Part shown: positions 4,410 through 61,003 of the stretch, in pieces | Position numbering within the stretch: position 1 is the first letter of the stretch | Layout of the letters: every line of letters starts with the position of its first letter | Virus record (IMG/VR): IMGVR_UViG_3300037400_003300 | Location: 16,273 to 80,272 of that record | Reading direction: 5' to 3' (one strand) | Source of the DNA: a virus | Lineage: Duplodnaviria; Heunggongvirae; Uroviricota; Caudoviricetes | DNA: 64,000 bases | The notes under the pieces: generated by a model | The model's database searches: none | The model's input: the letters and a program-made list of their open reading frames with translations, nothing else | Told to the model about the DNA's origin: nothing | Made by a program: the position numbers and the translations under genes

Positions 4410-4654
4410 TATATCAGATAAAGCATACGCTCATACATAAAATCTAGGATGTATATGGCACCAAGATAATAAGGAGATTGCAAATGCAATAAATGATGGC
4501 AAAGTGCTACCGACATTTAAAACTAAAGGAGATATGGTCATATATATGCTAGGCCGATTTGTTTATTCTTGTAACCTTGATAATGGTTTTATTGAAGTAT
4601 GCTTACAAAAAGGTGACGAGGAGATTATTATAACCTGTAGCGAAGCGTGGTGGA

Positions 4655-18601: not shown

Positions 18602-18805
18602 ATGCCAAGAAGCGAAGCAAAAAGACGAGCTGATAATAAATACAATCTGGCTCATTATACGGTGCTTGGTTGCAAGATGAAGATAACAGAGGCAGAAGAG
18701 TTTAAAACGGCCTGCAAGGGCTCAGGAACAACCCCTAATGCTGTCTTTAGAAAAGCAATAGAAAACTTTATGAAGAATTATAATAGCGGGGTAAAAGATG
18801 TCTGA
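18602..18805 (+). CDS. small DNA-binding protein (RHH/excisionase-like) upstream of recombinase
   Basis: position and size; basic N-terminus. Confidence 0.35.
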   Translation: MPRSEAKRRADNKYNLAHYTVLGCKMKITEAEEFKTACKGSGTTPNAVFRKAIENFMKNYNSGVKDV

Positions 18806-19819: not shown

Positions 19820-19856
19820 AAGCTGCTTGAGTAAATCTCAAACAGCTTTTTATATT
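19820..19856. terminator. bidirectional terminator between convergent genes
   Basis: AGCTGCTTGAG-TAAAT-CTCAAACAGCT hairpin followed by a T-run. Confidence 0.45.
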
Positions 19857-20985
19857 AAACATATTGCTTCTCATGTTGATGACTTGCGATCACATTAGCA
19901 AGCCCGGCCTTATCAGAATCACTAACAAAACATCCCTGTGCACGTATTGGCTTGTTACCACCTTTTTTAATAAGCATATCGCCCCTTCCGAAAAGTTTTT
20001 CTGCACCTGTTTGATCTAAGATAATACGGGACTCCATAGAACTAGAAGTGTTAAGCGCAATTCTAAATGGGAAGTTAGCTTTAATAAGGCCCGTAACAAC
20101 GTCATGTCTAGGCGACTGAGTTCCTATGATAAGATGTATACCGCAGCCCCTTGCTTTCTGGGCAAGCCTTACAATGTATTCTTCAACCTCTCTGTTTTTC
20201 AGAATAAGATCGGCAAACTCGTCAATAATACATATTTCTCTTGATAATTCATGGCCTTTTGAATGGTATTCATCTATATCATCACAGCCATTTTTAGCAA
20301 GAAAAGCGTAGCGACTTTCCATAGAAGCACATAGCCTTGATAGAAGAGAATATGCTTCATGTTCATTACTAACAAGGTTGATATAGGTATCTTTATATTT
20401 ATTAAATTCAGTTCCCTTCATATCAATAACGTCAATGATATTACTTGTTACATCATTTGATCTTGACGTTGCATAAATGCTATGCATTAGAAGGGAAGCA
20501 AGTATAGAGTGGATAGTCTCAGATTTACCGCTTCCGGTTGTACCCGCTATTAGAATATGCGGGGCCTTGGCAATGTCTGTATAAACAGCTTTTCCATTAA
20601 GATCCTGGCCAAGTACAACGGAAGTCATACTTGTACTATCATGGAATTTATCTGTATATAGGCTGCCAAAAGGAATAACATTAAACGTCCCTTGTCTCTC
20701 AATAACAATTGTATCAGCAGTCTGATAGTAGGATATATTATCTGATCTAAGGGCGGCTGCAAGCGTAGATTCAATAGCTTTCTTGGCCCTGAGTATCTTT
20801 CCATTTAGTGTAACATCCAAAGGAAGGTTGATAATATACCTAACTACCTGTGCGCTTTCTTTAACGTCATTAACTCTAAGGCCATACTGTTCAAATATCC
20901 TGTTAATGTTTGAAATATCCTGTGATTTTAATGGATAGCTATTATTTGAACATACTGTATTTAGATTTAGATTTCTGAATGCCAT
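19855..20985 (-). CDS. FtsK/SpoIIIE-family DNA translocase ATPase
   Basis: Walker A GTTGSGKSE, Walker B ICIIDEFADL. Confidence 0.75.
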   Translation of the reverse strand: MAFRNLNLNTVCSNNSYPLKSQDISNINRIFEQYGLRVNDVKESAQVVRYIINLPLDVTLNGKILRAKKAIESTLAAALRSDNISYYQTADTIVIERQGTFNVIPFGSLYTDKFHDSTSMTSVVLGQDLNGKAVYTDIAKAPHILIAGTTGSGKSETIHSILASLLMHSIYATSRSNDVTSNIIDVIDMKGTEFNKYKDTYINLVSNEHEAYSLLSRLCASMESRYAFLAKNGCDDIDEYHSKGHELSREICIIDEFADLILKNREVEEYIVRLAQKARGCGIHLIIGTQSPRHDVVTGLIKANFPFRIALNTSSSMESRIILDQTGAEKLFGRGDMLIKKGGNKPIRAQGCFVSDSDKAGLANVIASHQHEKQYV

Positions 20986-31139: not shown

Positions 31140-31547
31140 ATGGACACAAGAACTATCAACGAGCATTATGCCGAGATAGGTGCTGAGCTTATTGAGAAGG
31201 AAGAAGCACTTGAAGGCATAAGAAACAGCACTGCGACCATCATTTATCTGTCTAGTGAACACAAAAAGACGGGAAATGGGAAGGTGGTCAAGGCACAGTG
31301 CGAAAAAATCTCCGACAAGTACAAATGGGGGATTCCATGTGACTTCACGATAACGGTTTTTGAGCCAAATTGTGAAGGAATGACCGAGGAACAGATGAAA
31401 ATGCTTATTTTCCATGAGTTATTGCATGTAAAGATAAGCTACAAGGATGACGGAACGGAAGTTTTTGGTATTAATCCACATGATCTTGAGGATTTTAAGC
31501 TGATTATTGACAGGTTTGGCACAGAGTGGGCGGAGGTAAAGGAATGA
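31140..31547 (+). CDS. HExxH (SprT-like) putative metallopeptidase-domain protein
   Basis: AGGAGG RBS then ATG at ~31140; FHELLHV motif. Confidence 0.45.
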   Translation: MDTRTINEHYAEIGAELIEKEEALEGIRNSTATIIYLSSEHKKTGNGKVVKAQCEKISDKYKWGIPCDFTITVFEPNCEGMTEEQMKMLIFHELLHVKISYKDDGTEVFGINPHDLEDFKLIIDRFGTEWAEVKE

Positions 31548-32494
31548 TAGCATTTGTTATTGGTATTATTGCTACTATCGTGGCATTTTTCATACTTGGA
31601 ATTGATTTTGATGAAGTAGATTTTATGTGGGAGCCAAAGAAAAGGCAGGTGTTTTCGCTTATAGGACTGATTATATGTCTTTTAGGCTTTATAAAGACGG
31701 TTCCGACAGGTTCAACCGGTATCGTAACAACATTTGGTAGGATCGAGAACATTACTTTGGATGCGGGCATACATTTTATGGCACCTTGGAAGAAAGTAGT
31801 TAACATGGACAACCGGACACAGAAACAGTCCATAGAGATGCAGTGCTTTAGTTCAGATATTCAGGAAGTAAGCGTTATATACACGGTAAATTACCAGATA
31901 AACAAAGCAAATGCGCAGGAAATCTACAGGACGATAGGAAAAGAGTATTTTGACAAGATAGTAATGCCAAAAGCACTTGAAGCAGTAAAGTCAGTATTTG
32001 CCAAGTATACGGCTGAGGCGCTTGTAGCATCAAGAGCAGGGCTTTCAAAAGAGATTGAAGCAGTGCTTGTGGATGATCTTAGCAAGCAGAATATACAGAT
32101 CACTGCAACATCTATTGAGAACATTGATTTTACCGATGCTTTTACAAATGCAGTTGAAGCAAAGCAGGTAGCTGAGCAGAACAAGTTAAAAGCACAGACA
32201 GAACAGGCGCAGGCAACACTTGAAGCACAGGCACAGGCTGAAAGACAGGTAATAAAAGCCCAGGCAGATGCAGATGCGTCAATTCTTGCAGCAAAAGCAG
32301 ATGCAGAGGTTGCAAAGATCAGTTCTGACAGCGCACTTTACCAAGGCGAGAAGGAAGCATCCATTTTACAGAGAGTTGGAGAGCAGCTTGCGAAATATCC
32401 TGACCTTGTAAAGTACAAATACATTGAAGGCTGGGATGGCAAGATGCCACAGACAATACTTGGAAACTCAGATGTGATCATGGATATGAGGTAA
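31526..32494 (+). CDS. SPFH/Band-7 (stomatin/prohibitin-like) membrane protein
   Basis: N-terminal TM helix, SPFH core, Ala/Gln-rich coiled-coil tail. Confidence 0.65.
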   Translation: MGGGKGMIAFVIGIIATIVAFFILGIDFDEVDFMWEPKKRQVFSLIGLIICLLGFIKTVPTGSTGIVTTFGRIENITLDAGIHFMAPWKKVVNMDNRTQKQSIEMQCFSSDIQEVSVIYTVNYQINKANAQEIYRTIGKEYFDKIVMPKALEAVKSVFAKYTAEALVASRAGLSKEIEAVLVDDLSKQNIQITATSIENIDFTDAFTNAVEAKQVAEQNKLKAQTEQAQATLEAQAQAERQVIKAQADADASILAAKADAEVAKISSDSALYQGEKEASILQRVGEQLAKYPDLVKYKYIEGWDGKMPQTILGNSDVIMDMR

Positions 32495-35872: not shown

Positions 35873-36048
35873 CTAAGAGATACTATACCACAGAAGCCCA
35901 ATAAAATAAACTTTATATAAAAATGTAGACTTTTTTATATAACTTTGGTTGTAAAATGGTAGTGTAAAATAATATAAACAGAGCCTATAGGGCATTTAAA
36001 ATACAGCAAGCCTTACCTTCGGGTGGGGCTTTTTTATATGGTGAAAAT

Positions 36049-37599
36049 ATGGGCGGTAGGAAAAAGATAATGACCGATGTTCCGGTCGTTACTGCTGAAA
36101 ATATAATATCGATTATTCAAAAAGCAATCGGAGACCATAAAGAAAACGCTGCTAAGATACAGGAATTATTTGATTTTGAAGAGGGCTTTCAGCCACTTCA
36201 AAGAGTGAAGGTGTATCGAAGCGATATTGATATAGATGTGACTGATAACGTAGCTAATGAGATTGTTGAGTTTAAAGTTGCTCTAAACTATGGAAATCCT
36301 ATTTCTTTTAAGAAACGTGGATCTGTAGATGGGATGATTGAAGCAATCGAGATGTGGAATGACCAGTATTTCCTTACGGATTCAGATTCAAGCAATCAGG
36401 AACTTGCAAGAGATTTTGAAATCTGCGGTATTGGAAATGTTTTTATTGATATAAATACTGATTATGAGGAAGGCGATTCTTACTACACAAGAACAATCTT
36501 AAATCCAAGGACTTCATTTGTTATTTACTCATCATATTACTATGACCGCAGACCGATGGTAGGTGTAACGTTCCGTAAAGATTCAGATGGAGTAACGCAT
36601 TACACGGCATTTTCTAAGGATTTCAGATTTGAGATAAAGTATTGGATAATCCAGAATCCGGGGAAAGAAGATGAACCGGTCTGGGCGCATGAGGATAGGA
36701 GTGGAGAAGTAAATCCACTTCATGCGATACCTATTATCGAATATTTTAGAAGTTATGACAGAATGGGATGCTTTGAAAGGCAGATTCCCGCAATGAACAA
36801 CCTTAACCTGCTTGTTTCTGACTTCTCGAATGACGTAGACCAGAACACACAGGTTGTATGGTGGGCAAATGATTGTGAGTTTGAGACCATACAGGTTGTA
36901 AATGAGGATGGGACTGTTACTGAGCAGGTAAAACATCCAAAATCTAACGAATGGCTTCAGACATTTACAACAAGAGATGGCAAGATACCGAAAGTTCAGC
37001 CACTTATCGTTAATTACGATTACGCGGGAATGCTGAATAATTATATGTCTCAGAGAGCATTGATACTCCAGAAGTGTAATGTGCCTCAGAGAAATGATAA
37101 TTCCGGAGGAAGCACAGGTGTTGCAATGAGTGATGCTACCGGATGGAGTGCAGCTGATATTGCGGCAAATAAAGAGGAAATGATTATCTCTAAGAGTATC
37201 AGACGGGAGATAAAAGTTATCTGTGCTGCGATAAGAGAAAGCGCATGTCCTTTGGACAGTCCACTTAGAAAGATTAAGCCATCCGATATTGAGCCAAGCA
37301 TAAAGAGACAGAAGAATTATGAACTTTCAGTAAAGACAACGGCAATATCTAATCTGATTAATATTGGATTCAGTCTTGAAGATACGCTTGATGCTGTACC
37401 ACTGTTTCCAGATCCGGCACAGGTTATTGAGCGAAGTAAAGAAGGTGTGGAAGCATATCAGAAAACAAAACTTAAGCAATCCGAAAAGAGTGAAGAAAAA
37501 GAAGCAACGCCCGGTTCAGACGATCCCATATATCAGATTGAGAACAGCCCTAATATAGATGGAATGAACACAGATAATGGCGAAGAGGATGAAAATTGA
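36049..37599 (+). CDS. portal protein
   Basis: 516 aa; position between terminase and head-morphogenesis genes. Confidence 0.65.
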   Translation: MGGRKKIMTDVPVVTAENIISIIQKAIGDHKENAAKIQELFDFEEGFQPLQRVKVYRSDIDIDVTDNVANEIVEFKVALNYGNPISFKKRGSVDGMIEAIEMWNDQYFLTDSDSSNQELARDFEICGIGNVFIDINTDYEEGDSYYTRTILNPRTSFVIYSSYYYDRRPMVGVTFRKDSDGVTHYTAFSKDFRFEIKYWIIQNPGKEDEPVWAHEDRSGEVNPLHAIPIIEYFRSYDRMGCFERQIPAMNNLNLLVSDFSNDVDQNTQVVWWANDCEFETIQVVNEDGTVTEQVKHPKSNEWLQTFTTRDGKIPKVQPLIVNYDYAGMLNNYMSQRALILQKCNVPQRNDNSGGSTGVAMSDATGWSAADIAANKEEMIISKSIRREIKVICAAIRESACPLDSPLRKIKPSDIEPSIKRQKNYELSVKTTAISNLINIGFSLEDTLDAVPLFPDPAQVIERSKEGVEAYQKTKLKQSEKSEEKEATPGSDDPIYQIENSPNIDGMNTDNGEEDEN

Positions 37600-38233
37600 T
37601 GAACTTAATATCTTAAGCAGTGAGAATACGCATGAAGAGGAGTCTTTTGATTATAAAGATTATATGGAGCATTACTTTGATACTATGCAAATCTCCGAGA
37701 AGCAAAAGAGAGAGCGTATTGAAGAAGCAAAAGAGATACTTGATGCAATCTTACTGTTTTTGATATGGTGCGAAGAAAATCCTGAGAACGTGCAAAGAGA
37801 AGATACAAAGCGCGATATGGAAAATCTTTACAAAGAAGTCATCTTTCAGAAAGTCGAGCCTGATGATTTTGTTGATATGTACGTTCTGTTCTTTATAAAC
37901 AATCTGGTAGAAGTAACAACGGAGAATGAAGGTGATGAATACTTCACATCTGTTGAAAGAGCTACAAAGATTGCATGTAATGAAGCAAACAGCGTTATCA
38001 ACTATTCAGAACTGCAAAGAGCCATTGAACAGGGATACACTTATAAGCAATGGCACACAGAGCTTGATGAGAAGGTTCGTGAGACTCATCAGGAGATGGA
38101 AGGTGTTACGATTCCTATAAACGAGCCGTTTTTTGTTGGTAATTCCAGGATGATGATGCCACATGACATAACAATGGGAGCGGATGCGAGAGAGATAGTT
38201 AATTGTAGGTGTTCACTTTCATTTTTGGATTAA
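37577..38233 (+). CDS. head morphogenesis protein (SPP1 gp7 / Mu F family)
   Basis: C-terminal REIVNCRCSL motif. Confidence 0.7.
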   Translation: MAKRMKIDELNILSSENTHEEESFDYKDYMEHYFDTMQISEKQKRERIEEAKEILDAILLFLIWCEENPENVQREDTKRDMENLYKEVIFQKVEPDDFVDMYVLFFINNLVEVTTENEGDEYFTSVERATKIACNEANSVINYSELQRAIEQGYTYKQWHTELDEKVRETHQEMEGVTIPINEPFFVGNSRMMMPHDITMGADAREIVNCRCSLSFLD

Positions 38234-38409
38234 TATGGTTCGGGACAGAGACGTTAAACCTGTTCGAGAAGTCGTAGAGCGCGACTATAAATAAGGCTCA
38301 ATCGTATGAATACCGAGAGCGGCGGTCATAATACCGCTTATAAAATGTAAACCTTTGAAAGCTATGATGCATATCATGGCTTTTTTTATTGCTCAAAAAG
38401 GAGAAGGTC

Positions 38410-38598
38410 ATGATTACAAGTATTCAAGCAAATAGCGCAAACGGTGTAGGACATTTAGCATGTGATACAGAAGCAGACCTTGCTAATCTTCCGGATTACG
38501 CAAAATCAAATAACTTGAAACAGGGGACTGACTGCATTGTTATTGATACATCCAACGTATACATGATGAAGTCGGATTATACCTTTAAGCAGATTTAA
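38410..38598 (+). CDS. hypothetical small protein
   Basis: RBS AAAGGAGAAGG. Confidence 0.35.
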   Translation: MITSIQANSANGVGHLACDTEADLANLPDYAKSNNLKQGTDCIVIDTSNVYMMKSDYTFKQI

Positions 38599-38609
38599 GG
38601 AGGAAAACT

Positions 38610-39032
38610 ATGGATGTTATATCGTATGTTCTCTCCAAACGAATAGCTGAAGGCGCAGTATCGGGCGTGGCAGAAATGACTGTTGATGGGCAGACCTTAA
38701 ATATAGAATGTACGGATGGAACACACCTGGAAATGGATTTTCCTATGCCTGCTGATGGTGCATCTATAACAGATGTTGAGATCATCTCAAATGGACATCT
38801 TATCTGCACGTTATCTAATGGGAATACGATTGATGCAGGGAAAGTCCCAGACGTACTTACAAGAATCGAGTCTGTCAGCGACATAGACGATGTTGAGCTT
38901 GACGCTCTTGCAGATGGGCAAGTTCTTTCGTGGGATGAAACAAGTGGCAAATGGACTAATAAGGATACTGGCGGTTCAGTAGATGAACTGACACAGGAAC
39001 AGGTAGAAAACCTGCTCTCAATAATACAATAA
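38610..39032 (+). CDS. tail-fibre-associated protein
   Basis: AGGAGG RBS; in tail-fibre-like module. Confidence 0.4.
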   Translation: MDVISYVLSKRIAEGAVSGVAEMTVDGQTLNIECTDGTHLEMDFPMPADGASITDVEIISNGHLICTLSNGNTIDAGKVPDVLTRIESVSDIDDVELDALADGQVLSWDETSGKWTNKDTGGSVDELTQEQVENLLSIIQ

Positions 39033-39042
39033 AGGAGAAAAT

Positions 39043-39702
39043 GTGATGGCAAATTTTGTTTCTAATGACAATATGACCGAATTGATGAATGGTATTGCAA
39101 CAAAGTTTAATAGTCTTGGAGGAGCATGGAAGTTCAGAGGTTCTGTTACATTCGCTAATCTTCCATCAACTATCACCCCTGCAATGGCAGGTTATCTTTA
39201 CAACGTGACCAATGACTTTACAACAGATGCTAGATTCGTTGAGGGTGCAGGCAAGAAATACAAAGCAGGAACCAATGTAGCAGTTGCAGATTTGACTACA
39301 TATTCAGCTGTAACACCGGTTGGTTCAGAAGATCCTTCATCGGAAGGCTGGTATGAGCTTATCAATGGAAAATACATTCTTTCAACAGATACAGTAGTTG
39401 ATAGTGAAAAGACATATTACAGTGCTGTAGTAGATGTGAAGTTTGATGTAGCGGGTTCTTTTGAAGATTTAGAGAATGTCTACAACATGATCGCAGGTAC
39501 ATTTGATGATACAGAGCCTTACAGCACTGGCGATGTTGTAATTTATGAGGGTGGCCTTTACAAATTTAAAGCGGATCATGCAGCAGGGGCTTGGGATGTT
39601 TCTGAGGTTGATAGTACAAAAGTTGCAGACCTTGTTACAGCAGCAGAACCAGACAGCCTTACGCCTGCACAAATCAATGCGTTGTTAGCACTTCTTGATT
39701 AA
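39043..39702 (+). CDS. tail fibre-like protein (paralog of 59552..61003 N-terminal region)
   Basis: shared FxxLPS...G.LYNVTxxFTT...EGAGxxYxAGTNV and ...GKTYY segments. Confidence 0.5.
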   Translation: MMANFVSNDNMTELMNGIATKFNSLGGAWKFRGSVTFANLPSTITPAMAGYLYNVTNDFTTDARFVEGAGKKYKAGTNVAVADLTTYSAVTPVGSEDPSSEGWYELINGKYILSTDTVVDSEKTYYSAVVDVKFDVAGSFEDLENVYNMIAGTFDDTEPYSTGDVVIYEGGLYKFKADHAAGAWDVSEVDSTKVADLVTAAEPDSLTPAQINALLALLD

Positions 39703-39713
39703 GAGGGAAAGAT

Positions 39714-40166
39714 ATGAGTCTAAAAAACTATATGGCTTATGGGGATGCTGAAACCATCCTCACAAGCTATGCAAATAGAATAAAGCAAAGTCCTACGACA
39801 TTTGTTGGAACAACGGCAGAGTGGAATGCACTATCAGCTTCAGAAAAAGCAGAATATGTCCTTGTAGACATTACTGACGATGAGAGTTCACTTTCAGGAA
39901 TGCCAAGATTTCCAGATTATTCTAATCAGATTACAGTTGATGGAAGCCCTTGGACAGCTACAGAAGATTGTTATATTACTTATACATTATGCAATAGTGT
40001 ATACAGTACAGATAACAGGCTTCAGATTGATGGAAATGTTGTTAGTACCTATAGTAGCGCAGGTGGAACTTATGTACATCAATTCAATGGTTATGTTAGA
40101 GAAGGTCAGATAATATCTGCGGATGACGTTTATAGTCTTAGAGTATTTCCGCTACTAGGAGATTAA
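39714..40166 (+). CDS. hypothetical structural protein
   Basis: ORF track. Confidence 0.4.
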   Translation: MSLKNYMAYGDAETILTSYANRIKQSPTTFVGTTAEWNALSASEKAEYVLVDITDDESSLSGMPRFPDYSNQITVDGSPWTATEDCYITYTLCNSVYSTDNRLQIDGNVVSTYSSAGGTYVHQFNGYVREGQIISADDVYSLRVFPLLGD

Positions 40167-40180
40167 GGAAGGAAAAGACA

Positions 40181-42142
40181 ATGGGATTATATAAGAATAA
40201 TAATGGTGTTTTAATTCCCATAGCAGGGCGCGGAAAAGCGGAATATGGAGCAAGCACTACAAGAAGAAATACTTGGACAAATAGCGAAGCTATAAATCCG
40301 GATTCAAGTATTGCCTTTTCTGTATCATTCGATGTACCGATGCCTGATGATAATTATGAGGTCGATTGGACTTGCAGTGCAAGCGCATTACACCCTGTTA
40401 TAGAAGGAAAGACAGCAAGTGGTTTTACAGGTCATGCATATAGGCTTATATCTCCTGCGGTAGAAATCGGGAATGGTGTTATCAATTTTACAGCATTCAG
40501 ACTATATACGGATCTTGAATACAACGAACTTTTAGATGATACTTCCGGGTTAATAAAAAACACCTCAGAGATGGGAGCTGTCAACCTATTTGAGACCACT
40601 TTAAAAAGTCAGAGGTACAATAAGGTAATCTATTCAGTTAATGCCGATGGAACAATTGGCATTGAGGTACTTGAAAGACCTACAGGAAGTACCGGAAATA
40701 TTATTGGGTGGATTGAGGTAAAGGCAGGAGAGACTTATAAGCTCACAGGTGGAATATCTGAAACCGAAAGACTTGAACTTAGGAATGCCGATTATAGTGC
40801 GTGGACAAATAATACAGCAGGTAAGACTGTTTCTTCTCCGGTTGTAGCCACAAACATTGATACATTTATGCCTAATGATGATGCTACTATAATGGTTTAT
40901 TGCCGCATAGATGAAACAGGCAACACCGGAAATGTCGGCACTTTAGAGCCTATGATAAGATTTGCTTCCTTTTTGGAGGACACTTTCTTACCGTATGCAA
41001 AGACCAATAGGCTTTTGACAGTAGAAACAGATGAATTATTCGATAACGCCTCTATGCTCAAAGGCATGACAGCAATAACAGTTCAGACGGATCTTGATGA
41101 TGTTACTACTTTAGGCAATTACTATAAATCAAGCACATCTATATATGTGACTAATGCTCCGACAGGAATCGATTCAGAGACAAGTGCGATATTCAGGCTT
41201 AATGTTGAGAACGGTTCTGATTCTACAGATAAATACATACAGACAATCATCAAGAATGATGGGACAACCTACAAAAGAGGTTATGACGGAACGAATTGGA
41301 GCAGCTGGATAGAGTTTGCTTCAAGTGCCACTGTTTCAAGCATAAATACAAGGCTTACCGCAGCTGAAACAGATATAGACAACCTTGAATCAAGTAGATT
41401 AAAGACATATACGTCTGATGCAACGGCATGGGACACGGTGCCTACATCTTTAAGCGTAAAGCCTGTTACAAGTGGCGGCATAAAGACTGCGCTTGATAAT
41501 AAGCTTGCTACATATGCAGGTGATGATACAGCTTGGGACACAACCCCTACAGCGAACAGCACAAACCCTGTTACAAGTGGCGGCGTAAAGACTCAGATTG
41601 ACACTATCAACGGCAACAAGGCTAATCAGACTGTCATAGCAACAAGGCAGGCTAATCTTGTCGCTTCAAGAAGGTACGAGATCGGAGATCAGTTCATTTA
41701 CAATAACACTCTGTATAAAGCTACACAGGTTATTGAGCCAAACACAAATATCAATATCGCGGCAGGTGGAAATGCTACAACGGCAGACAATATTAGTTCG
41801 CAAATTAGCAATTTAGGGAATTACTCAACAACTGAACATTTAACAGGCAAATATTGGGTAGGTGGGAAACCGATATATAGAAAAGTAGTTAATTTTGGTA
41901 TGTTACCGAATAATACAGTTAAAACAGTAAATCATAATGTTTCTGGTATTTCTGATTGGGTATCTTTTTATGGTATAACATGGAACAATGCGAAAACTAG
42001 CATGGTATTACCTCATGTTGATTTTGATTCTTCATATTCTGTTGCGCTTTGGGTTACTTCAACAGCTATTACAATAAAAACAGGGCAAAATAGAAATGAA
42101 TTTTCAGAATGCTATGTGATACTTGAATATACCAAAACGTAA
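40181..42142 (+). CDS. tail fibre / receptor-binding protein with invertible C-terminal segment
   Basis: AWDTxPTxxSxxPVTSGG(I/V)KT repeats; inverted repeat at 41797 lies inside the gene. Confidence 0.6.
   Translation: MGLYKNNNGVLIPIAGRGKAEYGASTTRRNTWTNSEAINPDSSIAFSVSFDVPMPDDNYEVDWTCSASALHPVIEGKTASGFTGHAYRLISPAVEIGNGVINFTAFRLYTDLEYNELLDDTSGLIKNTSEMGAVNLFETTLKSQRYNKVIYSVNADGTIGIEVLERPTGSTGNIIGWIEVKAGETYKLTGGISETERLELRNADYSAWTNNTAGKTVSSPVVATNIDTFMPNDDATIMVYCRIDETGNTGNVGTLEPMIRFASFLEDTFLPYAKTNRLLTVETDELFDNASMLKGMTAITVQTDLDDVTTLGNYYKSSTSIYVTNAPTGIDSETSAIFRLNVENGSDSTDKYIQTIIKNDGTTYKRGYDGTNWSSWIEFASSATVSSINTRLTAAETDIDNLESSRLKTYTSDATAWDTVPTSLSVKPVTSGGIKTALDNKLATYAGDDTAWDTTPTANSTNPVTSGGVKTQIDTINGNKANQTVIATRQANLVASRRYEIGDQFIYNNTLYKATQVIEPNTNINIAAGGNATTADNISSQISNLGNYSTTEHLTGKYWVGGKPIYRKVVNFGMLPNNTVKTVNHNVSGISDWVSFYGITWNNAKTSMVLPHVDFDSSYSVALWVTSTAITIKTGQNRNEFSECYVILEYTKT
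41797..41814. repeat. inversion site IR1-L TTCGCAAATTAGCAATTT
   Basis: 18/18 match to the reverse complement of 42399-42416. Confidence 0.7.
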
Positions 42143-42400
42143 TTAAACTTTTATGCAAACAATACCAGCACTCATTGTTACATTGTTAGCCCCACTTACC
42201 ACCTTTGTACATTGAACATCAACATAATTACTCACTACATGTATTGCAGAAAAAACAACTGTCCAGTCGTTTGTGCTAAAAGCAAGCAATGAATGATAGG
42301 CGTAACCACTTGGAACATATAATCTTACAGATATGGTGTTTCCTAGATTCATGTTGTTGTATGTGGTATCGCCTATTACGGTTTTAAAGCGATTGGTCAA
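42143..42400 (-). CDS. alternative tail-fibre C-terminal cassette (promoterless, inverted)
   Basis: no own N-terminus; the IR encodes SQISNL in the same frame as in the + gene. Confidence 0.55.
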   Translation of the reverse strand: MTNRFKTVIGDTTYNNMNLGNTISVRLYVPSGYAYHSLLAFSTNDWTVVFSAIHVVSNYVDVQCTKVVSGANNVTMSAGIVCIKV

Positions 42401-42416
42401 ATTGCTAATTTGCGAA
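42399..42416. repeat. inversion site IR1-R (reverse complement of IR1-L)
   Basis: AAATTGCTAATTTGCGAA. Confidence 0.7.
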
Positions 42417-42483
42417 ATAAATAAAAATCGAATTAGATAAAAAAATGCATTCTAAAATAAAGACTTTTATAAAGGAGAAAAAA

Positions 42484-42747
42484 ATGAAAACAAAATTTTA
42501 TACTCTTATTATCAAGACTTATGATAATGGAGCCGATGACAAAACATCGTTGTATACGTATGACACATTCGATGAAGCGATTTCCGCAGCTCATACTCAG
42601 TGGGGACAGAACGTCGGTGCTGACACGATAGCAAGAGTTATGGCAAAGGTAACTAGCAGTTACGGAGTAGATTATCCTCTTCATACGCTGTATTGGGAGA
42701 AGCCCCAGCCCCAGCCTGAAGAAGAGGAAGAGGAAACTTCAGAGTGA
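42484..42747 (+). CDS. hypothetical protein with acidic PQPQPEEEEEE tail
   Basis: AAAGGAGAAAAA RBS. Confidence 0.4.
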   Translation: MKTKFYTLIIKTYDNGADDKTSLYTYDTFDEAISAAHTQWGQNVGADTIARVMAKVTSSYGVDYPLHTLYWEKPQPQPEEEEEETSE

Positions 42748-42880
42748 TTCTTATAAAAAGGTAAAGAATTTATAAGAAACCTCTGCTATGTATATGCTAA
42801 TAATTTGCAGAACAGAAAACTCATTTCATTATGAAAAAAATATGATGCCCCTTGTCGATATAATAAGGCAGGAGGTGCTT

Positions 42881-43867
42881 ATGGAAGAAGTAATTAATAA
42901 AATCGTAAATGCAATGGATGATTTAACACCAGAGCAGATCAGAAAATTAAGGAATGTGTTGGTTATTAATTTGAATAATCAACCAAGTCAAAAAAATGAA
43001 GTGAGTATAGGGATTGAGAATTGGGAGCAGATTATTAAGAATTATCTAGGATGTAAAAAACTTGAAAACTGTGCAGATGGAACCATTATGAACTATCGAA
43101 GAATTTTAAGGATAATGTATTCTGAGATTGGAAAATCAATAAAAGATATAACGTCTAATGATTTGAGATTTTTTATGGCTAAGTATATAGAAGAAAGAAA
43201 AATCTCGATGCAATATTCAGAGAACATTAGGCATATTTTGAATGGATTCTTCAGATGGTGTCAAGATGAAGAAATAATCCAGTCGAATCCGGCGAGAAAG
43301 CTTCAAAGGATAAAAGTTCCAAAGCTAATAAAGAAACCTTATACAGCAGAGGAAAGACTTAAACTTACAAGAACAGCAAAGTGCATGAGAGACATGGCAA
43401 TCATGGAAGTTTTGTATAGCACTGCGGGCAGACTTGGAGAAATCCTTGCTTTGAATAGAGAGGATGTAAAGTTTATTGGTAACAAAGCGGAAATCATAAT
43501 ATATGGACAGAAAGGCAAGGCAGAGAGAAAAGTCTTTCTTACAGAGCAAAGTGTTTATTATCTGAAGAGTTACCTTGAAAGTCGAACAGATAATGATCCT
43601 GCATTATTTGTATCTTTAAGAAAGCCATTCCATAGGATTGATGAAAGAGCAGTTCAGTTAATGATTAAGAATCTCGGAGAACGATGCGGAGTTGTTGCAC
43701 ATCCACATAAGTTCAGAAGGACTCTATTAACTGATATGAGTAAACGTGGAGCAAATATTCAGGACATAAAGGAATATGCCGGACATGTGAAGATTGAAAC
43801 GACCATGCTCTATGTTTCGACCAATGAAGAGTCAGTAAAAGCAGCATTTGATAGATGCATAAGCTAA
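42881..43867 (+). CDS. tyrosine recombinase (candidate invertase for the flanking invertible segments)
   Basis: GGAGGTG RBS; ...STAGRLGE (R), HKFRRT (HxxR), TTMLYV (Y). Confidence 0.75.
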   Translation: MEEVINKIVNAMDDLTPEQIRKLRNVLVINLNNQPSQKNEVSIGIENWEQIIKNYLGCKKLENCADGTIMNYRRILRIMYSEIGKSIKDITSNDLRFFMAKYIEERKISMQYSENIRHILNGFFRWCQDEEIIQSNPARKLQRIKVPKLIKKPYTAEERLKLTRTAKCMRDMAIMEVLYSTAGRLGEILALNREDVKFIGNKAEIIIYGQKGKAERKVFLTEQSVYYLKSYLESRTDNDPALFVSLRKPFHRIDERAVQLMIKNLGERCGVVAHPHKFRRTLLTDMSKRGANIQDIKEYAGHVKIETTMLYVSTNEESVKAAFDRCIS

Positions 43868-43912
43868 TGTAATGAACTCTTTTAGGCTGTCCGGAAGGAT
43901 GGCTTATTTTTC

Positions 43913-44254
43913 ATGCATTTTTTTAATGTGGTAAGGGACGTTAGAAAACATGCGCAATTTAGCAAATTTGCGAACGCTGGGGCGAAAGGAACTTATTTTA
44001 TTCTTGCTCTTAACGCAACATACACAGCAGGTTCCGATGGCTATTTGCAAATGTCTGCCAGTGCTCCTGCGGGTTCGGCAGTAATCGTTGAATTTTACGA
44101 TAGAAGTGGTGTCCATATGTTTACTGTGTTTGAGGTAACACCAGTCCAAAATATGGGCTCAAGCTCTGCTATATATGTTAAGAAAGGAATGATGTTTAAA
44201 GCCACAAGAATTGATGCTGGCGCACAGGCTATCTTCAATCCATTTAGTTATTGA
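43913..44254 (+). CDS. 113-aa protein with invertible C-terminal segment
   Basis: IR2-L at 43956 lies in codons AQFSKFAN. Confidence 0.5.
   Translation: MHFFNVVRDVRKHAQFSKFANAGAKGTYFILALNATYTAGSDGYLQMSASAPAGSAVIVEFYDRSGVHMFTVFEVTPVQNMGSSSAIYVKKGMMFKATRIDAGAQAIFNPFSY
43956..43975. repeat. inversion site IR2-L AATTTAGCAAATTTGCGAAC
   Basis: 20/20 reverse complement of 44493-44512. Confidence 0.7.
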
Positions 44255-44264
44255 TAACGTTTAT

Positions 44265-44492
44265 TTAAAGCCAAACCAAAAACCTCACTGCTATATTTGC
44301 GCTCTCGTTATTGAACGCTTGGCAAATTGAGCTTGCCCCTGAAGTATTTGAATTGTAATTAATAAAATACCTTGCTGTTTGCTGGCAAACACAAGTCATT
44401 CTGGATTTAGTACCGAAAAATTTTCCTGATGGGAGAAAATATTGCCCCCATGATTGAGGCGGCACTACAATCCAGTCTGAATCATAATCTGG
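44265..44492 (-). CDS. alternative C-terminal cassette for gene 43913 (inverted, promoterless)
   Basis: frame through the IR reads EFSKFAN, same as the + gene. Confidence 0.5.
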   Translation of the reverse strand, partial: PDYDSDWIVVPPQSWGQYFLPSGKFFGTKSRMTCVCQQTARYFINYNSNTSGASSICQAFNNESANIAVRFLVWL

Positions 44493-44512
44493 GTTCGCAA
44501 ATTTGCTAAATT
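44493..44512. repeat. inversion site IR2-R GTTCGCAAATTTGCTAAATT
   Basis: shares TTCGCAAATT core with IR1. Confidence 0.7.
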
Positions 44513-44595
44513 CCGTAATTAAAGTATTTATATAAAGAGCATAAAGATTGCTTTTAATTTTTTTAAAATCAAATGGATTAAAACAGGAATTAAAA

Positions 44596-44721
44596 TGCCA
44601 GTAAAGAAAGTAAAAGGTGGTTACAAATGGGGCGATAGCGGAAAAGTATACAAGAAAAAAGAAGATGCTTTAAAGCAAGGACGCGCCATAGAAGCCAATA
44701 AAAAGAAGAAAAAGCGTTGAA
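44596..44721 (+). CDS. small lysine-rich protein
   Basis: 41-aa ORF MPVKKVKGGYKWGDSGKVYKKKEDALKQGRAIEANKKKKKR. Confidence 0.3.
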
Positions 44722-45455: not shown

Positions 45456-46192
45456 AATTATTGGACTTCAACTTTAAATGTGATAGAATAGCATGGATGC
45501 TACCAAAAGCGGTAGGCGGTTGGCTCTTTGCCAGGTTATACCTGAGAACTCCCTTATTAAAGGAGGTGTTTTATGGGAAATCTGCTATGGAGCTTTGATG
45601 CTAAGACTATTGCTTATTACTTTGAGCATGGACTTAGTGATAATGGGAACTATAATCCTCATTGTTGCAATCATATCAAAGTTCAAGAAATAAATTTTTC
45701 CATCAAAAAAGACCGCTGAACACTTTGACCGAGTAGAAAGCGATCTCTTTTGATTGCAACTATTAATCAGAGCTAACCGTCTATCGGTAGCATCTTTCTA
45801 CAGACATAATAACATAAATCCTATAAAAAGCAAAATTCCATAATGCTTGCTAGCCAAATCATCCCCCATGATTGGCTTTATCTCCTCCTACAAGGCATCT
45901 ATGTTTCATCGCATAGATGTCTTTTTTGTCTGCAAAGGCATAATTTTTCCTTTTACTAGGGCGTATGACAGTCAAATGTCATGCGCCTTTTTCTTTGTCT
46001 GCCAAGATGAAGACTCGTTATTAAACCTCCGGGGTGCCTATCTGTCAAAGGATTCGTGCCCTATCACGCTCAGAGTAATCTGGGCGTTTTTTTGTGTCAA
46101 GGAAAAGACTTAGAAACCCTGAGAGAACAGCAAACACGCCATGAGGTTAGAGAAAACCTCACCAAAAAACACGAAAAGGAGAAAACAAAGAT

Positions 46193-46858
46193 ATGAAGAA
46201 CAGAACCATCGGAACCAATGAATTGTTGCCTATGAACTTACAGTTTTTTGCTGAGGATGCGGGTGAGGGGGCAGACGAAAGCTCCGGTTCGACGGACAAC
46301 GGAGAAACAAAGCCTGAACCCGATGAGGGCGAACCATCCAAGAGTTATGAGGATGCGTTAAGTGAGATTGCCGCAGCTAAAGCGGAAGCAAAGAAGTTAA
46401 AGGCAGAAAGGGACGCGGCACTTAAGAAAAGTGGTGAGATTTCCAAACAGCTTAGAGCAAAGATGTCTGAAGATGAACTGAAAGCAGAACAGGATGCACA
46501 GGCTAAAGAGGAATACGAAGCTCATGTAAAAGAACTTGAGCAGTACAAAGCCGAGAACGAAGCACTTAAGCGTTATAGGCTTCAAGGCATGACTGATGAT
46601 CTTGCAGCCAAAGCTGCAAAAGCAGAAATCGAGGGTGACATGGATGCTCTTGCGGATGTTCAGAAACAGCATACGCAGTCTCTTATCAAAGCAAAGGAAG
46701 CTGAATGGAAAGCGTCACGCCCAAGAGTAAACGTTGGCGATGATGAGGATTCTTCTATGACAAAGGAAGAGATTTTAGCAATTCAGGACAGAGATGAACG
46801 TACCAGGATGATTGCTAAGCATCTTTCTTTGTTTGAACAAAAAAACAAAGGAGAATAA
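46193..46858 (+). CDS. scaffolding protein
   Basis: acidic, coiled-coil; N-terminal MNLQFFA motif; upstream of the capsid gene. Confidence 0.55.
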   Translation: MKNRTIGTNELLPMNLQFFAEDAGEGADESSGSTDNGETKPEPDEGEPSKSYEDALSEIAAAKAEAKKLKAERDAALKKSGEISKQLRAKMSEDELKAEQDAQAKEEYEAHVKELEQYKAENEALKRYRLQGMTDDLAAKAAKAEIEGDMDALADVQKQHTQSLIKAKEAEWKASRPRVNVGDDEDSSMTKEEILAIQDRDERTRMIAKHLSLFEQKNKGE

Positions 46859-46861
46859 AAG

Positions 46862-48007
46862 ATGGCAGCTGAAAAAAATCTAATCAAAAAAGCCGATCTT
46901 GCTAGAGCAAGAGAAGTCGATTTCGTCTATCGCTTTACCGACAGTATCAATAAGCTTGTTGAAGCTCTTGGTGTAACAAGAAAGGAAAAAAAGGTTGCAG
47001 GTACTTTTCTTAAGGCTTACAAAGCAACCGGAACTCTTCAGGACGGACTTGTAGCAGAAGGTGATCTTATTCCTCTTAGCCACTACAAGACTATACCTGT
47101 TAACTTCGGTGAGATTCCTTTCAAGAAATGGAGAAAGGCTACATCCGCTGAAGCTATTATCGAAAAAGGCTACGAACAGGCTGTAACAATGACAACAGAC
47201 GAGATGCTCAAGGATGCTCAGAAGGGTATCAAGAAGTATTTCTTCAACTTCTTGTCACAGGGCACAGGTCTTGCATCAGGAACAACTTTCCAGTCAACAC
47301 TTGCAGCTATTTGGGGACAGCTTCAGGTACTTTTTGAAGATACAGAGATTGCAGCTGTATACTTCATGAACCCACTTGATGTTGCTGATTATCTTGGAAC
47401 AGCTCAGATCACATTGCAGACAGCTTTCGGTATGTCTTATATCGAGAACTTCCTTGGACTTGGAACAGTTATCCTTAATTCCAATATTCCAAAGGGAACT
47501 ATCTATGGAACTGCTAAGGAAAACATAGTTCTTTACTACATTCCTGTAAATGGTGCTGATCTTGGAGAGGTATTCCAGTTCACATCTGATGAGCTTGGAT
47601 ATATCGGTATCCATGAAACATCTGATTATGACAACATGACAGCAAAAGATACTGTTGTTTCCGGTATCGTTTTGTTTGCTGAGAGAATCGATGGTATTGT
47701 TGTTGGTTTTATCGGTGGTTCTATCACACCTACAATCACAACTGACGTTGATGAGATCACAATTCCTGTTGGCGGAATGGATACAATCCATGCTAAGGTT
47801 GCACCTGCTGGAACATCCTTCACATGGACATCTGATGACACAACAGAAACATATGTTAAGGTTACTCCTGGACTTGACAATGCAGATGTTGTTATCACAG
47901 GTGTTGCAACAACAATTTCCGGTGGAACAGATTCACCCGTTACACTTACATGCACAGCAGGCGGCGTAACAAAGACTGTAACTGTTACTGTTTCAGCTAG
48001 TGCTTGA
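46862..48007 (+). CDS. major capsid protein with C-terminal Ig-like (Big_2-type) domain
   Basis: position and size; the C-terminal ~90 aa is rich in T/V and G, like an Ig-like decoration domain. Confidence 0.55.
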   Translation: MAAEKNLIKKADLARAREVDFVYRFTDSINKLVEALGVTRKEKKVAGTFLKAYKATGTLQDGLVAEGDLIPLSHYKTIPVNFGEIPFKKWRKATSAEAIIEKGYEQAVTMTTDEMLKDAQKGIKKYFFNFLSQGTGLASGTTFQSTLAAIWGQLQVLFEDTEIAAVYFMNPLDVADYLGTAQITLQTAFGMSYIENFLGLGTVILNSNIPKGTIYGTAKENIVLYYIPVNGADLGEVFQFTSDELGYIGIHETSDYDNMTAKDTVVSGIVLFAERIDGIVVGFIGGSITPTITTDVDEITIPVGGMDTIHAKVAPAGTSFTWTSDDTTETYVKVTPGLDNADVVITGVATTISGGTDSPVTLTCTAGGVTKTVTVTVSASA

Positions 48008-48026
48008 TGAAAGAAGGGGAAGGCGT

Positions 48027-48371
48027 ATGCAGTATGAAGTAATTAGATACTTTACTGATGCGCAGGATAACGAGCATGCTTACCGCGAGGGAGATATCTT
48101 CCCTCGCGAGGGGCATACCGTATCAAATGCGCGTATTAGTGATTTGCTTAGTGGAAATAACTTTCAGAGAGTACCTCTTATTAAGCGCGTGACAAACACA
48201 AGCGTTAAGAAAGAGAAGAAGGTTGAGGAAGCTAAGGAATACACAGCAGAGGACATCATGAAAATGCCTTACATGAAGCTCAAATCTCTTGCAAGGCAGA
48301 ATGATGTTGATGTTAAGGACAGGGAAGCTGTTGATATAAGAAATGATCTTATTGAAAAACTGGGGTTGTGA
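48027..48371 (+). CDS. head-tail connector region protein
   Basis: gene order. Confidence 0.35.
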   Translation: MQYEVIRYFTDAQDNEHAYREGDIFPREGHTVSNARISDLLSGNNFQRVPLIKRVTNTSVKKEKKVEEAKEYTAEDIMKMPYMKLKSLARQNDVDVKDREAVDIRNDLIEKLGL

Positions 48372-59551: not shown

Positions 59552-61003
59552 ATGGCATATCCTAAACATATTTGGAGAAAAGGAGAGATTATTAACGCTG
59601 AGCCTCTAAATAACATTGAGAATGGTATTGCAAATGAAGAGACAAGGGCAACAGATTCGGAAGTAATCTTAGATAATAAAATAGAGGCAAATAAGTCTGC
59701 TTCTGATGATGCAATTGCTACAGAATCAATAAGAGCTTCCACCGCAGAGGATGAACTATCTCAGCGTATAAATGCTTTAAATCTAAACTTTGCTGATTTA
59801 CAAAATTATGTAAATAAAATGAGTTCAGCCACATATAAGGCAAGCGGTTCAATATTATTTTCTGAATTGCCAGAACTAAGTGGAAATAACGTAGGTAATG
59901 TTTATAACATTAAGGAATCTTTTACGACTACATCTGATTTCTACGAGGGAGCAGGGCATACTTACGGGGCAGGTACAAATGTATCGATTATTCAAGTAGA
60001 AGACTCAGATTATCAGGTCACTCAAGTCAGCGTTGGGGATAATCCATTAGAACTTGGCTTGTATGAATATGATACTCAAACTGATACTTATATTCTTACT
60101 ACGGACACTTCGCCTGAAAGTGGGAAAACATATTATATAAGAAATGTGACAATTAATTATTTTTATGACGTAATGACAGCATCTATTGACACATCAGAGT
60201 TTGTCAAATACACAGACATAGCAACTAATAGTAGATTGGGAATTTGCAAGCCTGATGGAAGTAGTATTCATATGAATGATAGAGGTACTTTCTATCTTAA
60301 TGTCAGAAATCCCGAAGATGTGACTAGTCATGTAGATAATTTATCACTTGCCATTCATCATGCAGAACTTGCTAGATATGGTTTCTTTGTTGGTGATTGG
60401 TTTGATGGGACGAATTATAGATATTTCATTGCAGGATATAATCCTTTTCGCGGTAATCGTTCAAGCGCTGCTGACCCAGCAAGTTCAATATGCTTAGATG
60501 TTGACCATGTGGCACTTGTTTTTTCTGTTGGGCAGCTTAAATGGCATGATTCTGGAACATCTGTTATGAACGTTGGTTATGCGGGTTCAGATTATCAGAA
60601 TTACTTAGAAACAACAGTAATGAATAATGTCAAAAACGACATGATAGAGCTACTTGGAGGTGAAACAGGACTTGAATATTTGAGAGAGCAGACTAAGTAT
60701 TTTAGAAGAAATGATGATGAACCCGCTCTTTCGAGAGATAGACACAAGTATATATCTGCTTTAACAGAGAGACAGGTTTATGGTTCAGCTCTTTATTCTA
60801 AAGACCAGTTACAGACAGGTGAAGCATATCATCAGCTTGAAATCTTCCAAAAATATCTTCCTGTCATGAGCCTTGAAGGAGGCTTTTGGCTGAGAGATAT
60901 TGCATCGAGTGCATCTGCATGTTGTGTAGATGACAATGGAATGCCTAGTACTGATTCATTTAGAAATACAAGAAATGGTGCGGCAATGATCTTATTTAGA
61001 TAA
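59552..61003 (+). CDS. tail fibre protein (paralog of 39043..39702)
   Basis: shared segments with ORF 39043. Confidence 0.5.
   Translation: MAYPKHIWRKGEIINAEPLNNIENGIANEETRATDSEVILDNKIEANKSASDDAIATESIRASTAEDELSQRINALNLNFADLQNYVNKMSSATYKASGSILFSELPELSGNNVGNVYNIKESFTTTSDFYEGAGHTYGAGTNVSIIQVEDSDYQVTQVSVGDNPLELGLYEYDTQTDTYILTTDTSPESGKTYYIRNVTINYFYDVMTASIDTSEFVKYTDIATNSRLGICKPDGSSIHMNDRGTFYLNVRNPEDVTSHVDNLSLAIHHAELARYGFFVGDWFDGTNYRYFIAGYNPFRGNRSSAADPASSICLDVDHVALVFSVGQLKWHDSGTSVMNVGYAGSDYQNYLETTVMNNVKNDMIELLGGETGLEYLREQTKYFRRNDDEPALSRDRHKYISALTERQVYGSALYSKDQLQTGEAYHQLEIFQKYLPVMSLEGGFWLRDIASSASACCVDDNGMPSTDSFRNTRNGAAMILFR

Follow-up and report, generated by a model that had tools for sequence, protein, structure and literature searches.

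A probable four-site inversion system with an embedded Xer-like tyrosine recombinase at the 3' end of a phage fibre gene

The DNA considered here is a stretch of 64,000 nucleotides from a tailed phage (Caudoviricetes; IMG/VR record IMGVR_UViG_3300037400_003300, positions 16,273 to 80,272), to which we refer in its full length as the window. Among its head genes lies a block with a fibre gene, a gene for a tyrosine recombinase, a small open reading frame (ORF) named orfX, and two pairs of short inverted repeats (IR1 and IR2) whose arms mark four sites (s1 to s4), each opening into an alternative C-terminal end of the fibre (cassettes A to D, Table 1). A first-pass annotation, made from the sequence alone, had described the two repeat pairs and the recombinase gene between them and had read the whole as a four-site shufflon, i.e. 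a multiple-inversion system. In the following, contigs and loci used for comparison are cited by L numbers, and their proteins by P numbers.

Table 1. Coordinates (positions of the window) of the features of the fibre and inversion locus
Feature	Position	Strand	Description
Fibre ORF, current form	40181-42142	+	653 amino acids (aa); left arm of IR1 inside its 3' end
Constant part of the fibre	40181-41805	+	541 codons, ending ...DNISSQ
Site s1 (expression site)	41797-41820	+	TTCGCAAAT TAGCAA TTTAGGGAA; core 41806-41811
Cassette A, now fused to the fibre	41812-42142	+	ISNLGNYSTTEH...; 112 aa counted from I
Cassette B, silent	42143-42401	-	ISNLTNRFKTVIG...; 88 aa; tail-to-tail with A
Site s2	42393-42416	-	TTCGCAAAT TAGCAA TTTGACCAA on the minus strand; core 42402-42407; breakpoint of the IR1 inversion in L015
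orfX	42484-42747	+	87 aa, acidic, PQPQPEEEEEE at the C-terminus; in the s2-s3 segment, ahead of the recombinase gene
Xer-like tyrosine recombinase (invertase)	42881-43867	+	328 aa; AGGAGG 7 nt upstream of the ATG
Terminator-like hairpin with T run	43883-43906	+	After the recombinase gene; sequence conserved in related loci
Site s3	43951-43974	+	TGCGCAATT TAGCAA ATTTGCGAA; core 43960-43965; in L014 and L015 the IR2 inversion breaks here
Cassette C, silent	43966-44254	+	FSKFANAGAKGTYF...; 98 aa
Cassette D, silent	44265-44502	-	FSKFANPDYDSDW...; 81 aa
Site s4	44494-44517	-	TACGGAATT TAGCAA ATTTGCGAA on the minus strand; core 44503-44508; the IR2 inversion breaks here
Three small genes upstream of the fibre	38610-40166	+	140, 219 and 150 aa; all conserved upstream in L013, L015, L035 and L054

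Both repeat pairs are present as described. In a repeat search of the 38-46 kb region, IR2 (arms 43953-43975 and 44493-44515; 23 nt, 96% complementary) and IR1 (41793-41814 and 42399-42420; 22 nt, 95%) rank second and fourth, respectively, among the longest inverted repeats. The longest one (42478-42520 and 44522-44564; 43 nt, 77%, AT-rich), with one arm slightly inward of s2 and the other slightly outward of s4, is probably a product of chance in AT-rich DNA. The 10-mer TTCGCAAATT, which the first-pass annotation had taken for the common crossover core, has exactly four copies in the 64 kb, at 41797(+), 42407(-), 43965(-) and 44494(+), and solely within the repeat arms; 0.40 copies are expected by chance, and none of 100 shuffled sequences reached four. 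The perfect palindrome that had been pointed out in IR2 is likewise there (GCAAATTTGC, 44497-44506).

The role of the 10-mer, however, appears to be a different one. The window's four sites were set beside the sites of 13 other loci whose recombinases are 87-100% identical, and this comparison indicates that the true site comprises 24 bp, with an invariant and asymmetric 6-bp centre, TAGCAA, between two 9-bp arms. The 48 unique sites of this comparison were picked by requiring a TAGCAA centre and a TTCGCAA-like outer arm, so that the presence of TAGCAA at the centre of every cassette-facing site found is built into the search. Read into the cassette, the consensus is T-N-C-G-C/G-A-A-W-W, T-A-G-C-A-A, W-N-T-T-G-C-G-A-A (idealised TTCGCAAWW-TAGCAA-WWTTGCGAA). 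The outer half-site is well conserved and specific for the position in the locus (AGT TTCGCAA at position 1, AAT TTCGCAA at 2, GCA TGCGCAA at 3 and AAT TACGG/TAA at 4), while the inner half moves with the cassette; roughly half the sites have TTGCGAA as this arm, and in the others it is degenerate. The 10-mer TTCGCAAATT is the outer arm at s1 and s2 and, reverse-complemented, the inner, cassette-side arm of s3 and s4, with K-F-A-N as its translation; it would thus be one binding arm of a quasi-palindromic site, and the element that the four sites and those of all related loci share in register is TAGCAA. In more distant systems the centre differs between loci and is constant throughout each locus: (G)TAGCAA in L026, TAGTGA in L002 (recombinase 60% identical), AAACAGTAAT in a prophage of Wansuia hejianensis (51%) and TAAATAGTAAGA in the P0088 group (50%). 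One further contig of the Wansuia group (L043) has frameshifted cassettes and was not relied on. Owing to its symmetrical placement between the 9-bp arms and its co-variation per locus, TAGCAA behaves like the overlap (crossover) region of a tyrosine recombinase.

This alignment changes the polarity of the sites. The orientations had been given as forward, reverse, reverse, forward because the sites were matched arm to arm; by the TAGCAA centre and the reading frame, the order is s1(+), s2(-), s3(+), s4(-). It follows that s1 x s2, s3 x s4, s1 x s4 and s2 x s3 are the inverting pairs, of which the latter two would flip the recombinase gene, and that s1 x s3 and s2 x s4 are direct repeats. The two cross-recombinations that had been proposed as inversions, 41797 x 43956 and 42399 x 44493, thus join direct repeats and would delete the DNA between them. 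An alignment of the sites on TTCGCAAATT was also simulated and rejected, as 41797 x 43956 in that register truncates the fibre, which then ends in SSQIC and a stop codon.

The 653-aa product is a fibre protein on four grounds: a duplicated motif (WDT-P...PVTSGG-K-T), the name of a 76% identical homologue from Pseudobutyrivibrio sp. ('pyocin knob domain-containing protein'), weak fold matches and a paralogous neighbour. The AlphaFold model is poor (mean pLDDT 51, less than 50 in the cassette region), and for its confident middle part Foldseek returned as best matches the R1/R2 pyocin fibres and the tail fibres of phi812 and Pa193, with weak E values of 0.01-0.14. Among the small genes upstream, the 219-aa product (39043-39702) is a paralogue of the N-terminal part of the product of a tail-module gene at 59552-61003 (32% identity over 138 aa, E 1e-15) and has a sub-threshold match to CBM_5_12. 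Homologues of the fibre retain the constant part and diverge after SSQIS, i.e. at s1, the only site inside the expressed gene, which is read in frame as AGT TCG CAA ATT AGC AAT (S S Q I S N). The left flank of s1 reads ...AATATTAGTTCGCAAAT before TAGCAA; ATTTGCGAACCCAGATT marks cassette D and ATTTGCGAACGCTGGGG cassette C. Since the overlap falls in the codons xTT-AGC-AAx (I/F-S-N/K), each exchange stays in frame.

All four cassettes are open, in-frame C-termini of the fibre, and in the related loci, too, every position holds a cassette that is open over 80-140 aa in the TAGCAA-defined frame. No similarity among cassettes A to D was detectable. Joined in silico to the constant part, they yield fibres of 653 (A), 629 (B), 639 (C) and 622 aa (D). 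Upstream of cassette C, no in-frame start is conserved in related loci, the ATG at 43913 being replaced by in-frame stops in L004 and L001, and we therefore rejected a stand-alone expression of C or D from this ATG. Ahead of s4 no start codon was found on the minus strand. Together with the terminator-like hairpin behind the recombinase gene, which from its sequence would isolate positions 3 and 4 from recombinase transcription, this means that C and D cannot be expressed in situ.

Exact look-ups of the proteins of the window showed the same phage on four contigs from further samples, natural isomers among them. The contig L015 (SRR9036511) matches the window at 99.7% over 36000-41814, carries 41793-42420 inverted, is 100% identical over 42399-43975, carries 43953-44515 inverted as well, and is 99.96% identical beyond. 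Cassette A accordingly stands at position 2, and the contig encodes a fibre of 629 aa (P0121), whose first 541 residues are 100% identical to the window fibre and are followed by cassette B, which is exactly the product of the simulated s1 x s2 inversion. In L014 (ERZ27256908, assembled with MEGAHIT, k141), which is 100% identical and begins at the first base of the right arm of IR1, i.e. at s2, the IR2 segment is inverted, cassette C included, at 100% identity. L016 (SRR12668996) is identical to the window and ends 10 nt past the left arm of IR2 (s3). Cassette D is found at position 3 in L014, L015 and L039. Inversions s1 x s2 and s3 x s4 thus occur in nature, and both segments are invertible as had been supposed, with breakpoints in the repeats. 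The locus combines four sites of mixed orientation (+ - + -) in or downstream of one gene with the inversion of single segments.

It could be argued that such isomers are artefacts of assembly at inverted repeats, and that the repeats themselves arose by chance in AT-rich DNA. All contigs of this comparison are metagenomic assemblies, and several of them end at the repeats. With 22-23 bp, however, the repeats are far below the final k-mer of 141 used for L014; since they are shorter than the assembly k-mers, misassembly is unlikely and the isomers are regarded as real. The same breakpoints recur, moreover, in independent samples and with different assemblers, the number of motif copies is significant, and the same four-site, in-frame architecture exists with other cores, among others in a finished isolate chromosome (Wansuia hejianensis, CP060635.1). 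We rejected this explanation because of the k-mer length and the concordance of independent samples, and consider its probability practically negligible.

The product of 42881-43867 is, as annotated, a tyrosine recombinase with the R, HxxR and Y motifs, located between the repeat pairs. It contains a SAM-like core-binding domain (PF13495, 3.3e-9) and a catalytic domain (PF00589, 1.4e-28), and alignment to its best solved relative, XerA (4a8e), assigns the catalytic residues R184, K213, H276, R279, H302 and Y311 (RKHRHY). Its nearest annotated relatives are 'xerA' genes on plasmids of Ligilactobacillus salivarius (pR1; 38% identity over the full length), which lie between oppositely oriented hsdS genes, and its top plasmid matches are such hsdS-linked xerA genes and not Rci; in a collection of annotated phages, the best match is 37% identical. 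Judged by these relatives, it appears to be an enzyme of invertase type, closest to the hsdS invertases. The search gave thousands of significant matches, and the relatives considered here are the closest ones, with at least 50% identity. The neighbouring orfX, for which the profile libraries gave no family match, is 100% conserved in the lineage of the window and is absent at the equivalent place in the P0001 group; it is thus not an essential cofactor.

Many clusters of recombinase homologues are known only from contigs of 1.1-1.7 kb, approximately the size of the segment from s2 through the recombinase gene to s3 (for P0083, the longest contig is shorter than 2 kb in 30 of 46 index blocks), which fits assemblies that break at heterogeneous invertible sites. 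More remote homologues (30-37%), labelled 'integrase', occur between tail-fibre-like genes and the holin in phiCp-D (Clostridium, L037; 21639-22616) and TPELB_ph1 (Terrisporobacter, L038; 17645-18640), the latter of which carries a further integrase among its lysogeny genes. Since neither locus showed convincing inverted repeats or cassettes, both were set aside.

Alternatively, the recombinase could be a phage integrase or a dimer resolvase of Xer type, with the repeats as att- or dif-like sites that flank fibre-like ORFs by chance. Database labels such as 'integrase' and 'XerD', matches to integrase PHROGs and the Xer-like sequence itself are in line with this view, and a resolvase would be of use to the plasmid functions of the element (ParA, Rep3). 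Yet the recombinase scores far under the NCBIfam equivalog cutoffs of XerA (182 bits vs 220), XerC (128 vs 335) and XerD (107 vs 330). Only SAM_4 and catalytic domains were detected in it, and the repeats are four core-type sites of alternating orientation, each opening into a fibre cassette, which is not the arrangement of a lambda-type integrase; as the sole recombinase of the block is of the tyrosine family, a serine recombinase is not involved either. Resolution or integration can be served by the other tyrosine recombinase of the element (18798-19814(+); 25% identical), which adjoins an FtsK-like gene. In other phages, furthermore, this recombinase type travels with fibre genes to varied genome positions, lying between tail tube and tape measure in L017 and after baseplate genes in L026, L042 and L046. 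The first-pass annotation had itself named, as what would overturn it, a grouping with integrases that possess a separate attP together with a lack of isomers. Neither applies: there are inversion isomers that break within the repeats, and among annotated relatives the hsdS invertases are the nearest. An integrase or resolvase is thus highly improbable, and the supposition of a single recombinase for both repeat pairs is supported; all four sites belong to one family.

Evidence that cassettes pass from one segment to the other comes from related loci. The C-terminus of a full-length fibre, P0184, is a 91% identical homologue of cassette D; P0125, P0128, P0164, P0137 and P0172 end in the cassettes that L011 and L013 have at position 3; and P0124 has the hybrid junction SSQISKFAN, as predicted for the left half of s1 joined to a right half of the s3/s4 type. 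With the same recombinase protein, one cassette occupies position 2 in L004-L010 and position 4 in L011 (94% identity), and another one stands at position 4 of L017 and at position 3 of L019 (97%). In L035, whose recombinase segment including orfX is 99.2% identical to that of the window, the whole A+B segment of the window lies inverted between positions 3 and 4 (B at 3, A at 4; 86% identity), the position-specific outer half-sites are kept and homology begins precisely with TTAGCAA. An s1 x s4 event plus an s2 x s3 event would lead to such an arrangement. The number of sites varies among relatives, with six in L017 (+ - + - recombinase + -) and two in L026. An exchange of segments is displayed by the sister system of P0088 (+ - recombinase + -), where L046 on the one hand and L047/L051 on the other have swapped their left and right segments (4353-4927 and 6097-6680 of L046) at 99.65% identity and in the same orientation, with flanks and recombinase 100% identical and unflipped, and where the expressed protein of 163-166 aa changes its C-terminus to match; by inversions alone, this swap would take four events. 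Finally, IR2 inverts and the cassettes at positions 3 and 4 remain open in every lineage, though silent in situ.

On this evidence, the locus is probably a four-site multiple-inversion system (shufflon) that changes the C-terminal, presumably receptor-binding, domain of the fibre. In such a system, a dedicated Xer-like recombinase devoid of an arm-type DNA-binding domain would act on 24-bp sites (arm TTCGCAAWW, overlap TAGCAA, inverted arm) in the layout s1(+), A, B, s2(-), orfX, recombinase, s3(+), C, D, s4(-). Recombination between s1 and s2 swaps cassette A for B, by which the fibre changes from 653 to 629 aa, while s1 x s4, followed by an s2 x s3 event that restores the orientation of the recombinase gene, could bring D or C to s1 (fibres of 622 or 639 aa). 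Cross events would be much rarer than the local flips, which are frequent, and an exchange of the tip may alter adsorption specificity or host range. That recombination across the segments takes place in this particular phage is likely, to judge from the related loci. Of the shufflon as originally proposed, the single family of sites and, by comparison, the movement of cassettes between segments have stood, and the cross pairs and orientations have been replaced.

Several observations weigh against this reading. The recombinase gene, for which a flipped state had been envisaged, is reversed relative to the fibre in none of more than 40 related contigs, although a model of inversions only predicts such states. 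No product of s1 x s4 or s2 x s3 was seen in the near-clonal isomers of the window's lineage, and the constant part of the window fibre was joined to cassette C or D in none of the 120 matches listed. Exact-pattern scans with the s1 flank, cassette D and the predicted s1-left/s4-right junction gave no match in IMG/VR or the JGI metagenome contigs, where the lineage is apparently unrepresented, so that this is not evidence of absence. The A/B segment of L035 is only 86% identical to the window, which makes the event old, or else the segment another allele. What sites of IR1 and IR2 type have in common is limited to TTAGCAA (7 bp) and partial arms. As to function, a receptor-binding role of the cassettes is putative, the structural model cannot be relied on where it covers the cassette (pLDDT below 50), and as the fibre gene stands among head genes, the fibre may be located elsewhere than in the tail.

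These points lead to the question of whether there are instead two independent two-site switches under one recombinase, such that IR1 toggles A and B, IR2 flips on its own without ever recombining with IR1, and C and D form a silent reservoir from which cassettes reach the fibre only through rare accidents of evolution or through homologous exchange between phages. Near-identical genomes indeed show local flips only, and the recombinase has never been seen flipped; the repeats are 95-96% identical over 22-23 nt within the pairs and match between the pairs only in the centre and parts of the arms, and cassette matches across positions in close lineages reach only 86-97%. Two separate switches, however, would leave the flip of IR2 without a phenotype, in view of the missing start codon and promoter and the terminator upstream, and yet IR2 is maintained, inverts, and keeps its cassettes open. 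The homology of relocated cassettes breaks exactly at TAGCAA, with half-sites reassorted in the manner predicted for site-specific exchange, the shared core of 7 bp is too short for recombination of RecA type, and the sister system displays the segment swap at 99.65%. Two separate switches are hence unlikely, and we retain the four-site system.

With regard to its genomic context, the locus lies, as had been noted, between the head morphogenesis and scaffold genes. The order is terminase (32924), portal (36049), a Mu-F-like gene (37577-38233), a terminator, three small genes, the fibre gene with the shufflon, small ORFs, three terminators, scaffold (46193-46858), capsid (46862) and tail genes, with the tape measure at 51931. 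Terminator-like hairpins bracket the inserted block, one after the Mu-F-like gene (38357-38384) and three in tandem before the scaffold gene (45892-46087). In relatives with 76% identical capsid genes (L061, L065-L068), the gap between the Mu-F-like and scaffold genes amounts to 524 bp, so that the block from 38.4 to 46.1 kb is an accessory insertion, in support of the acquired module that had been suggested. A different, unrelated insert occupies the same junction in L057 (gap 6617 bp), and the junction may be an insertion hot spot. Fibre, cassettes and recombinase appear to form a self-contained accessory module, and the three small genes upstream of the fibre are probably fibre-attachment or accessory proteins of this module. 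A 94% identical relative, L054 (IMG/VR 3300037249_000806), has neither recombinase nor s3 nor cassettes C and D. Its deletion, at 5990-6090 of the contig, corresponds to 42799-44502 of the window and ends on the right exactly at the s4 core, and its junction (ATGCT/TGCTAAATT) shows 4 nt of microhomology and not a core-aligned exchange. By its gene content, L054 would be a naturally locked, recombinase-less derivative.

The phage itself is probably siphovirus-like, a phage-plasmid rather than an integrating prophage, and at home in rumen or gut Clostridia. The element carries genes for a ParA-type ATPase (7741-8559(-)), a Rep3-family plasmid replication initiator (9547-10767(+)) and an FtsK/SpoIIIE-like protein (19855-20985(-)), and neither a lambda-type integrase nor a tRNA was found in it. 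Among its other genes are an IS605-family OrfB/TnpB with a Cas12f-like TNB domain (15569-16735(+)), a gene for an SPFH/Band-7 family protein just upstream of the large terminase (31526-32494(+)), and, directly after the major capsid gene, which is an odd place for a repressor-type fold, a gene with matches to Arc-like repressor PHROGs (48000-48371(+), E 5e-20). TnpA and TnpB also lie just upstream of the shufflon in the six-site relative L017. In the annotated phage collection, neither blastn (distant mode) with 38300-44700 nor tblastn with the fibre gave a match. A scan of bacterial genomes yielded one close locus, in a metagenome-assembled genome labelled Aeriscardovia from water-buffalo abomasum; the label probably stems from binning, and no inference on the host was drawn from it.

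Programmed switching of the receptor-binding tip lets one phage genotype hedge between types of host surface. Such switching is well studied for the serine invertases of coliphages, whereas the literature open to search offered, for tyrosine recombinases, no such system other than Rin of Actinobacteria prophages. The locus and its relatives indicate that an analogous system is present in phages of rumen and gut Clostridia, with a 6-bp overlap that co-changes per lineage, and a sister system is available in a cultured host, Wansuia hejianensis (CP060635.1). There are practical consequences as well: recombinases of this kind are routinely labelled 'integrase' or 'XerD', by which phages are miscalled temperate; assemblies break at the sites; and a host-range prediction from one assembled fibre allele is incomplete. 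Tentatively, and with some doubt, we propose that a large, undescribed family of self-contained modules of fibre gene, silent tip cassettes and embedded Xer-like invertase exists in phages and phage-plasmids of gut and rumen Clostridia, tied in evolution to the hsdS invertases and not to Rci or Gin, with forms of two, four and six sites and varied places of insertion, even between head genes, in which cassettes cross the recombinase gene while its orientation stays fixed. If this is true, the fixed orientation implies a directionality or selection rule so far unrecognised in tyrosine-recombinase shufflons.

Among known systems, the archetype of a shufflon is that of the IncI plasmid R64, in which the recombinase Rci acts on sfx sites and exchanges the C-termini of pilV. 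As here, a tyrosine recombinase brings about multiple inversion at the 3' end of one adhesin-type gene, and the sites consist of a conserved core with one well-conserved and one poorly conserved arm, which corresponds to the conserved outer arm and TAGCAA and the degenerate cassette-side arm of the present sites. R64, however, has seven sites and varies the adhesin of a conjugative pilus, whereas the present locus has four (two or six in relatives) and varies a phage fibre; its recombinase is embedded in the shufflon and has its best plasmid matches among hsdS-linked xerA genes and not in Rci (the R64 shufflon is mentioned in PMC9881135).

Tail fibres with a variable C-terminal part exchanged by inversion are also served by Gin, Cin, Pin and Min (of Mu, P1, e14 and p15B), of which Min is a multi-site shufflon. 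These are serine invertases that depend on Fis-bound enhancers and have chaperone genes in their segments; the present enzyme is a tyrosine recombinase (PF00589), and its segments contain no gene for a fibre-assembly chaperone. The closest annotated relatives of the recombinase, the L. salivarius 'xerA' genes mentioned above, lead to the invertons of hsdS in Type I restriction-modification (R-M) systems, which have tyrosine invertases of the PsrA/CreX type (PMC4948785, PMC7096588, PMC7672463); PsrA-type invertases serve, for instance, the phase-variable Type I R-M loci of pneumococci (PMC7096588). In both cases the recombinase gene is flanked by fragments of the target gene, and several inverted-repeat pairs are used by one enzyme. 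The target there is a DNA-specificity subunit and here a 653-aa fibre, with no R-M genes in the block, and the repeats here are short (about 24 bp) and synthetic-looking. Two of the three pneumococcal repeat pairs, by comparison, are longer stretches of hsdS coding sequence.

A further close counterpart is the Rin shufflon, in which a phage-encoded tyrosine invertase acts on the receptor-binding protein of Bifidobacterium prophages (Mavrich et al. 2018, PMC6109161) and which has also been reported from prophages of Eggerthella lenta (PMC8778435). We compared it by its published description (PMC6109161). Both systems are encoded by phages and rely on an XerD-like, two-domain tyrosine recombinase without an arm-binding domain; in both, there are several short asymmetric sites, each followed by a C-terminal cassette of the receptor-binding protein that lacks a promoter, inversion joins the cassettes to a constant N-terminal part, and a separate integrase or recombinase lies elsewhere in the genome. 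They differ in their hosts (Actinobacteria vs Lachnospiraceae-like Clostridia), in their sites (rix of 11 bp, TTCCCTAACCC, vs a 24-bp quasi-palindrome centred on TAGCAA), in the location of the recombinase gene (terminal in the cassette array vs between two invertible segments) and in the place of the module (after the tape-measure and Dit genes vs between head genes). No description of the present locus was found in literature searches. The class of mechanism is therefore already known from Rin and Rci, and the locus is a previously undescribed version of it from a phage of Clostridia.

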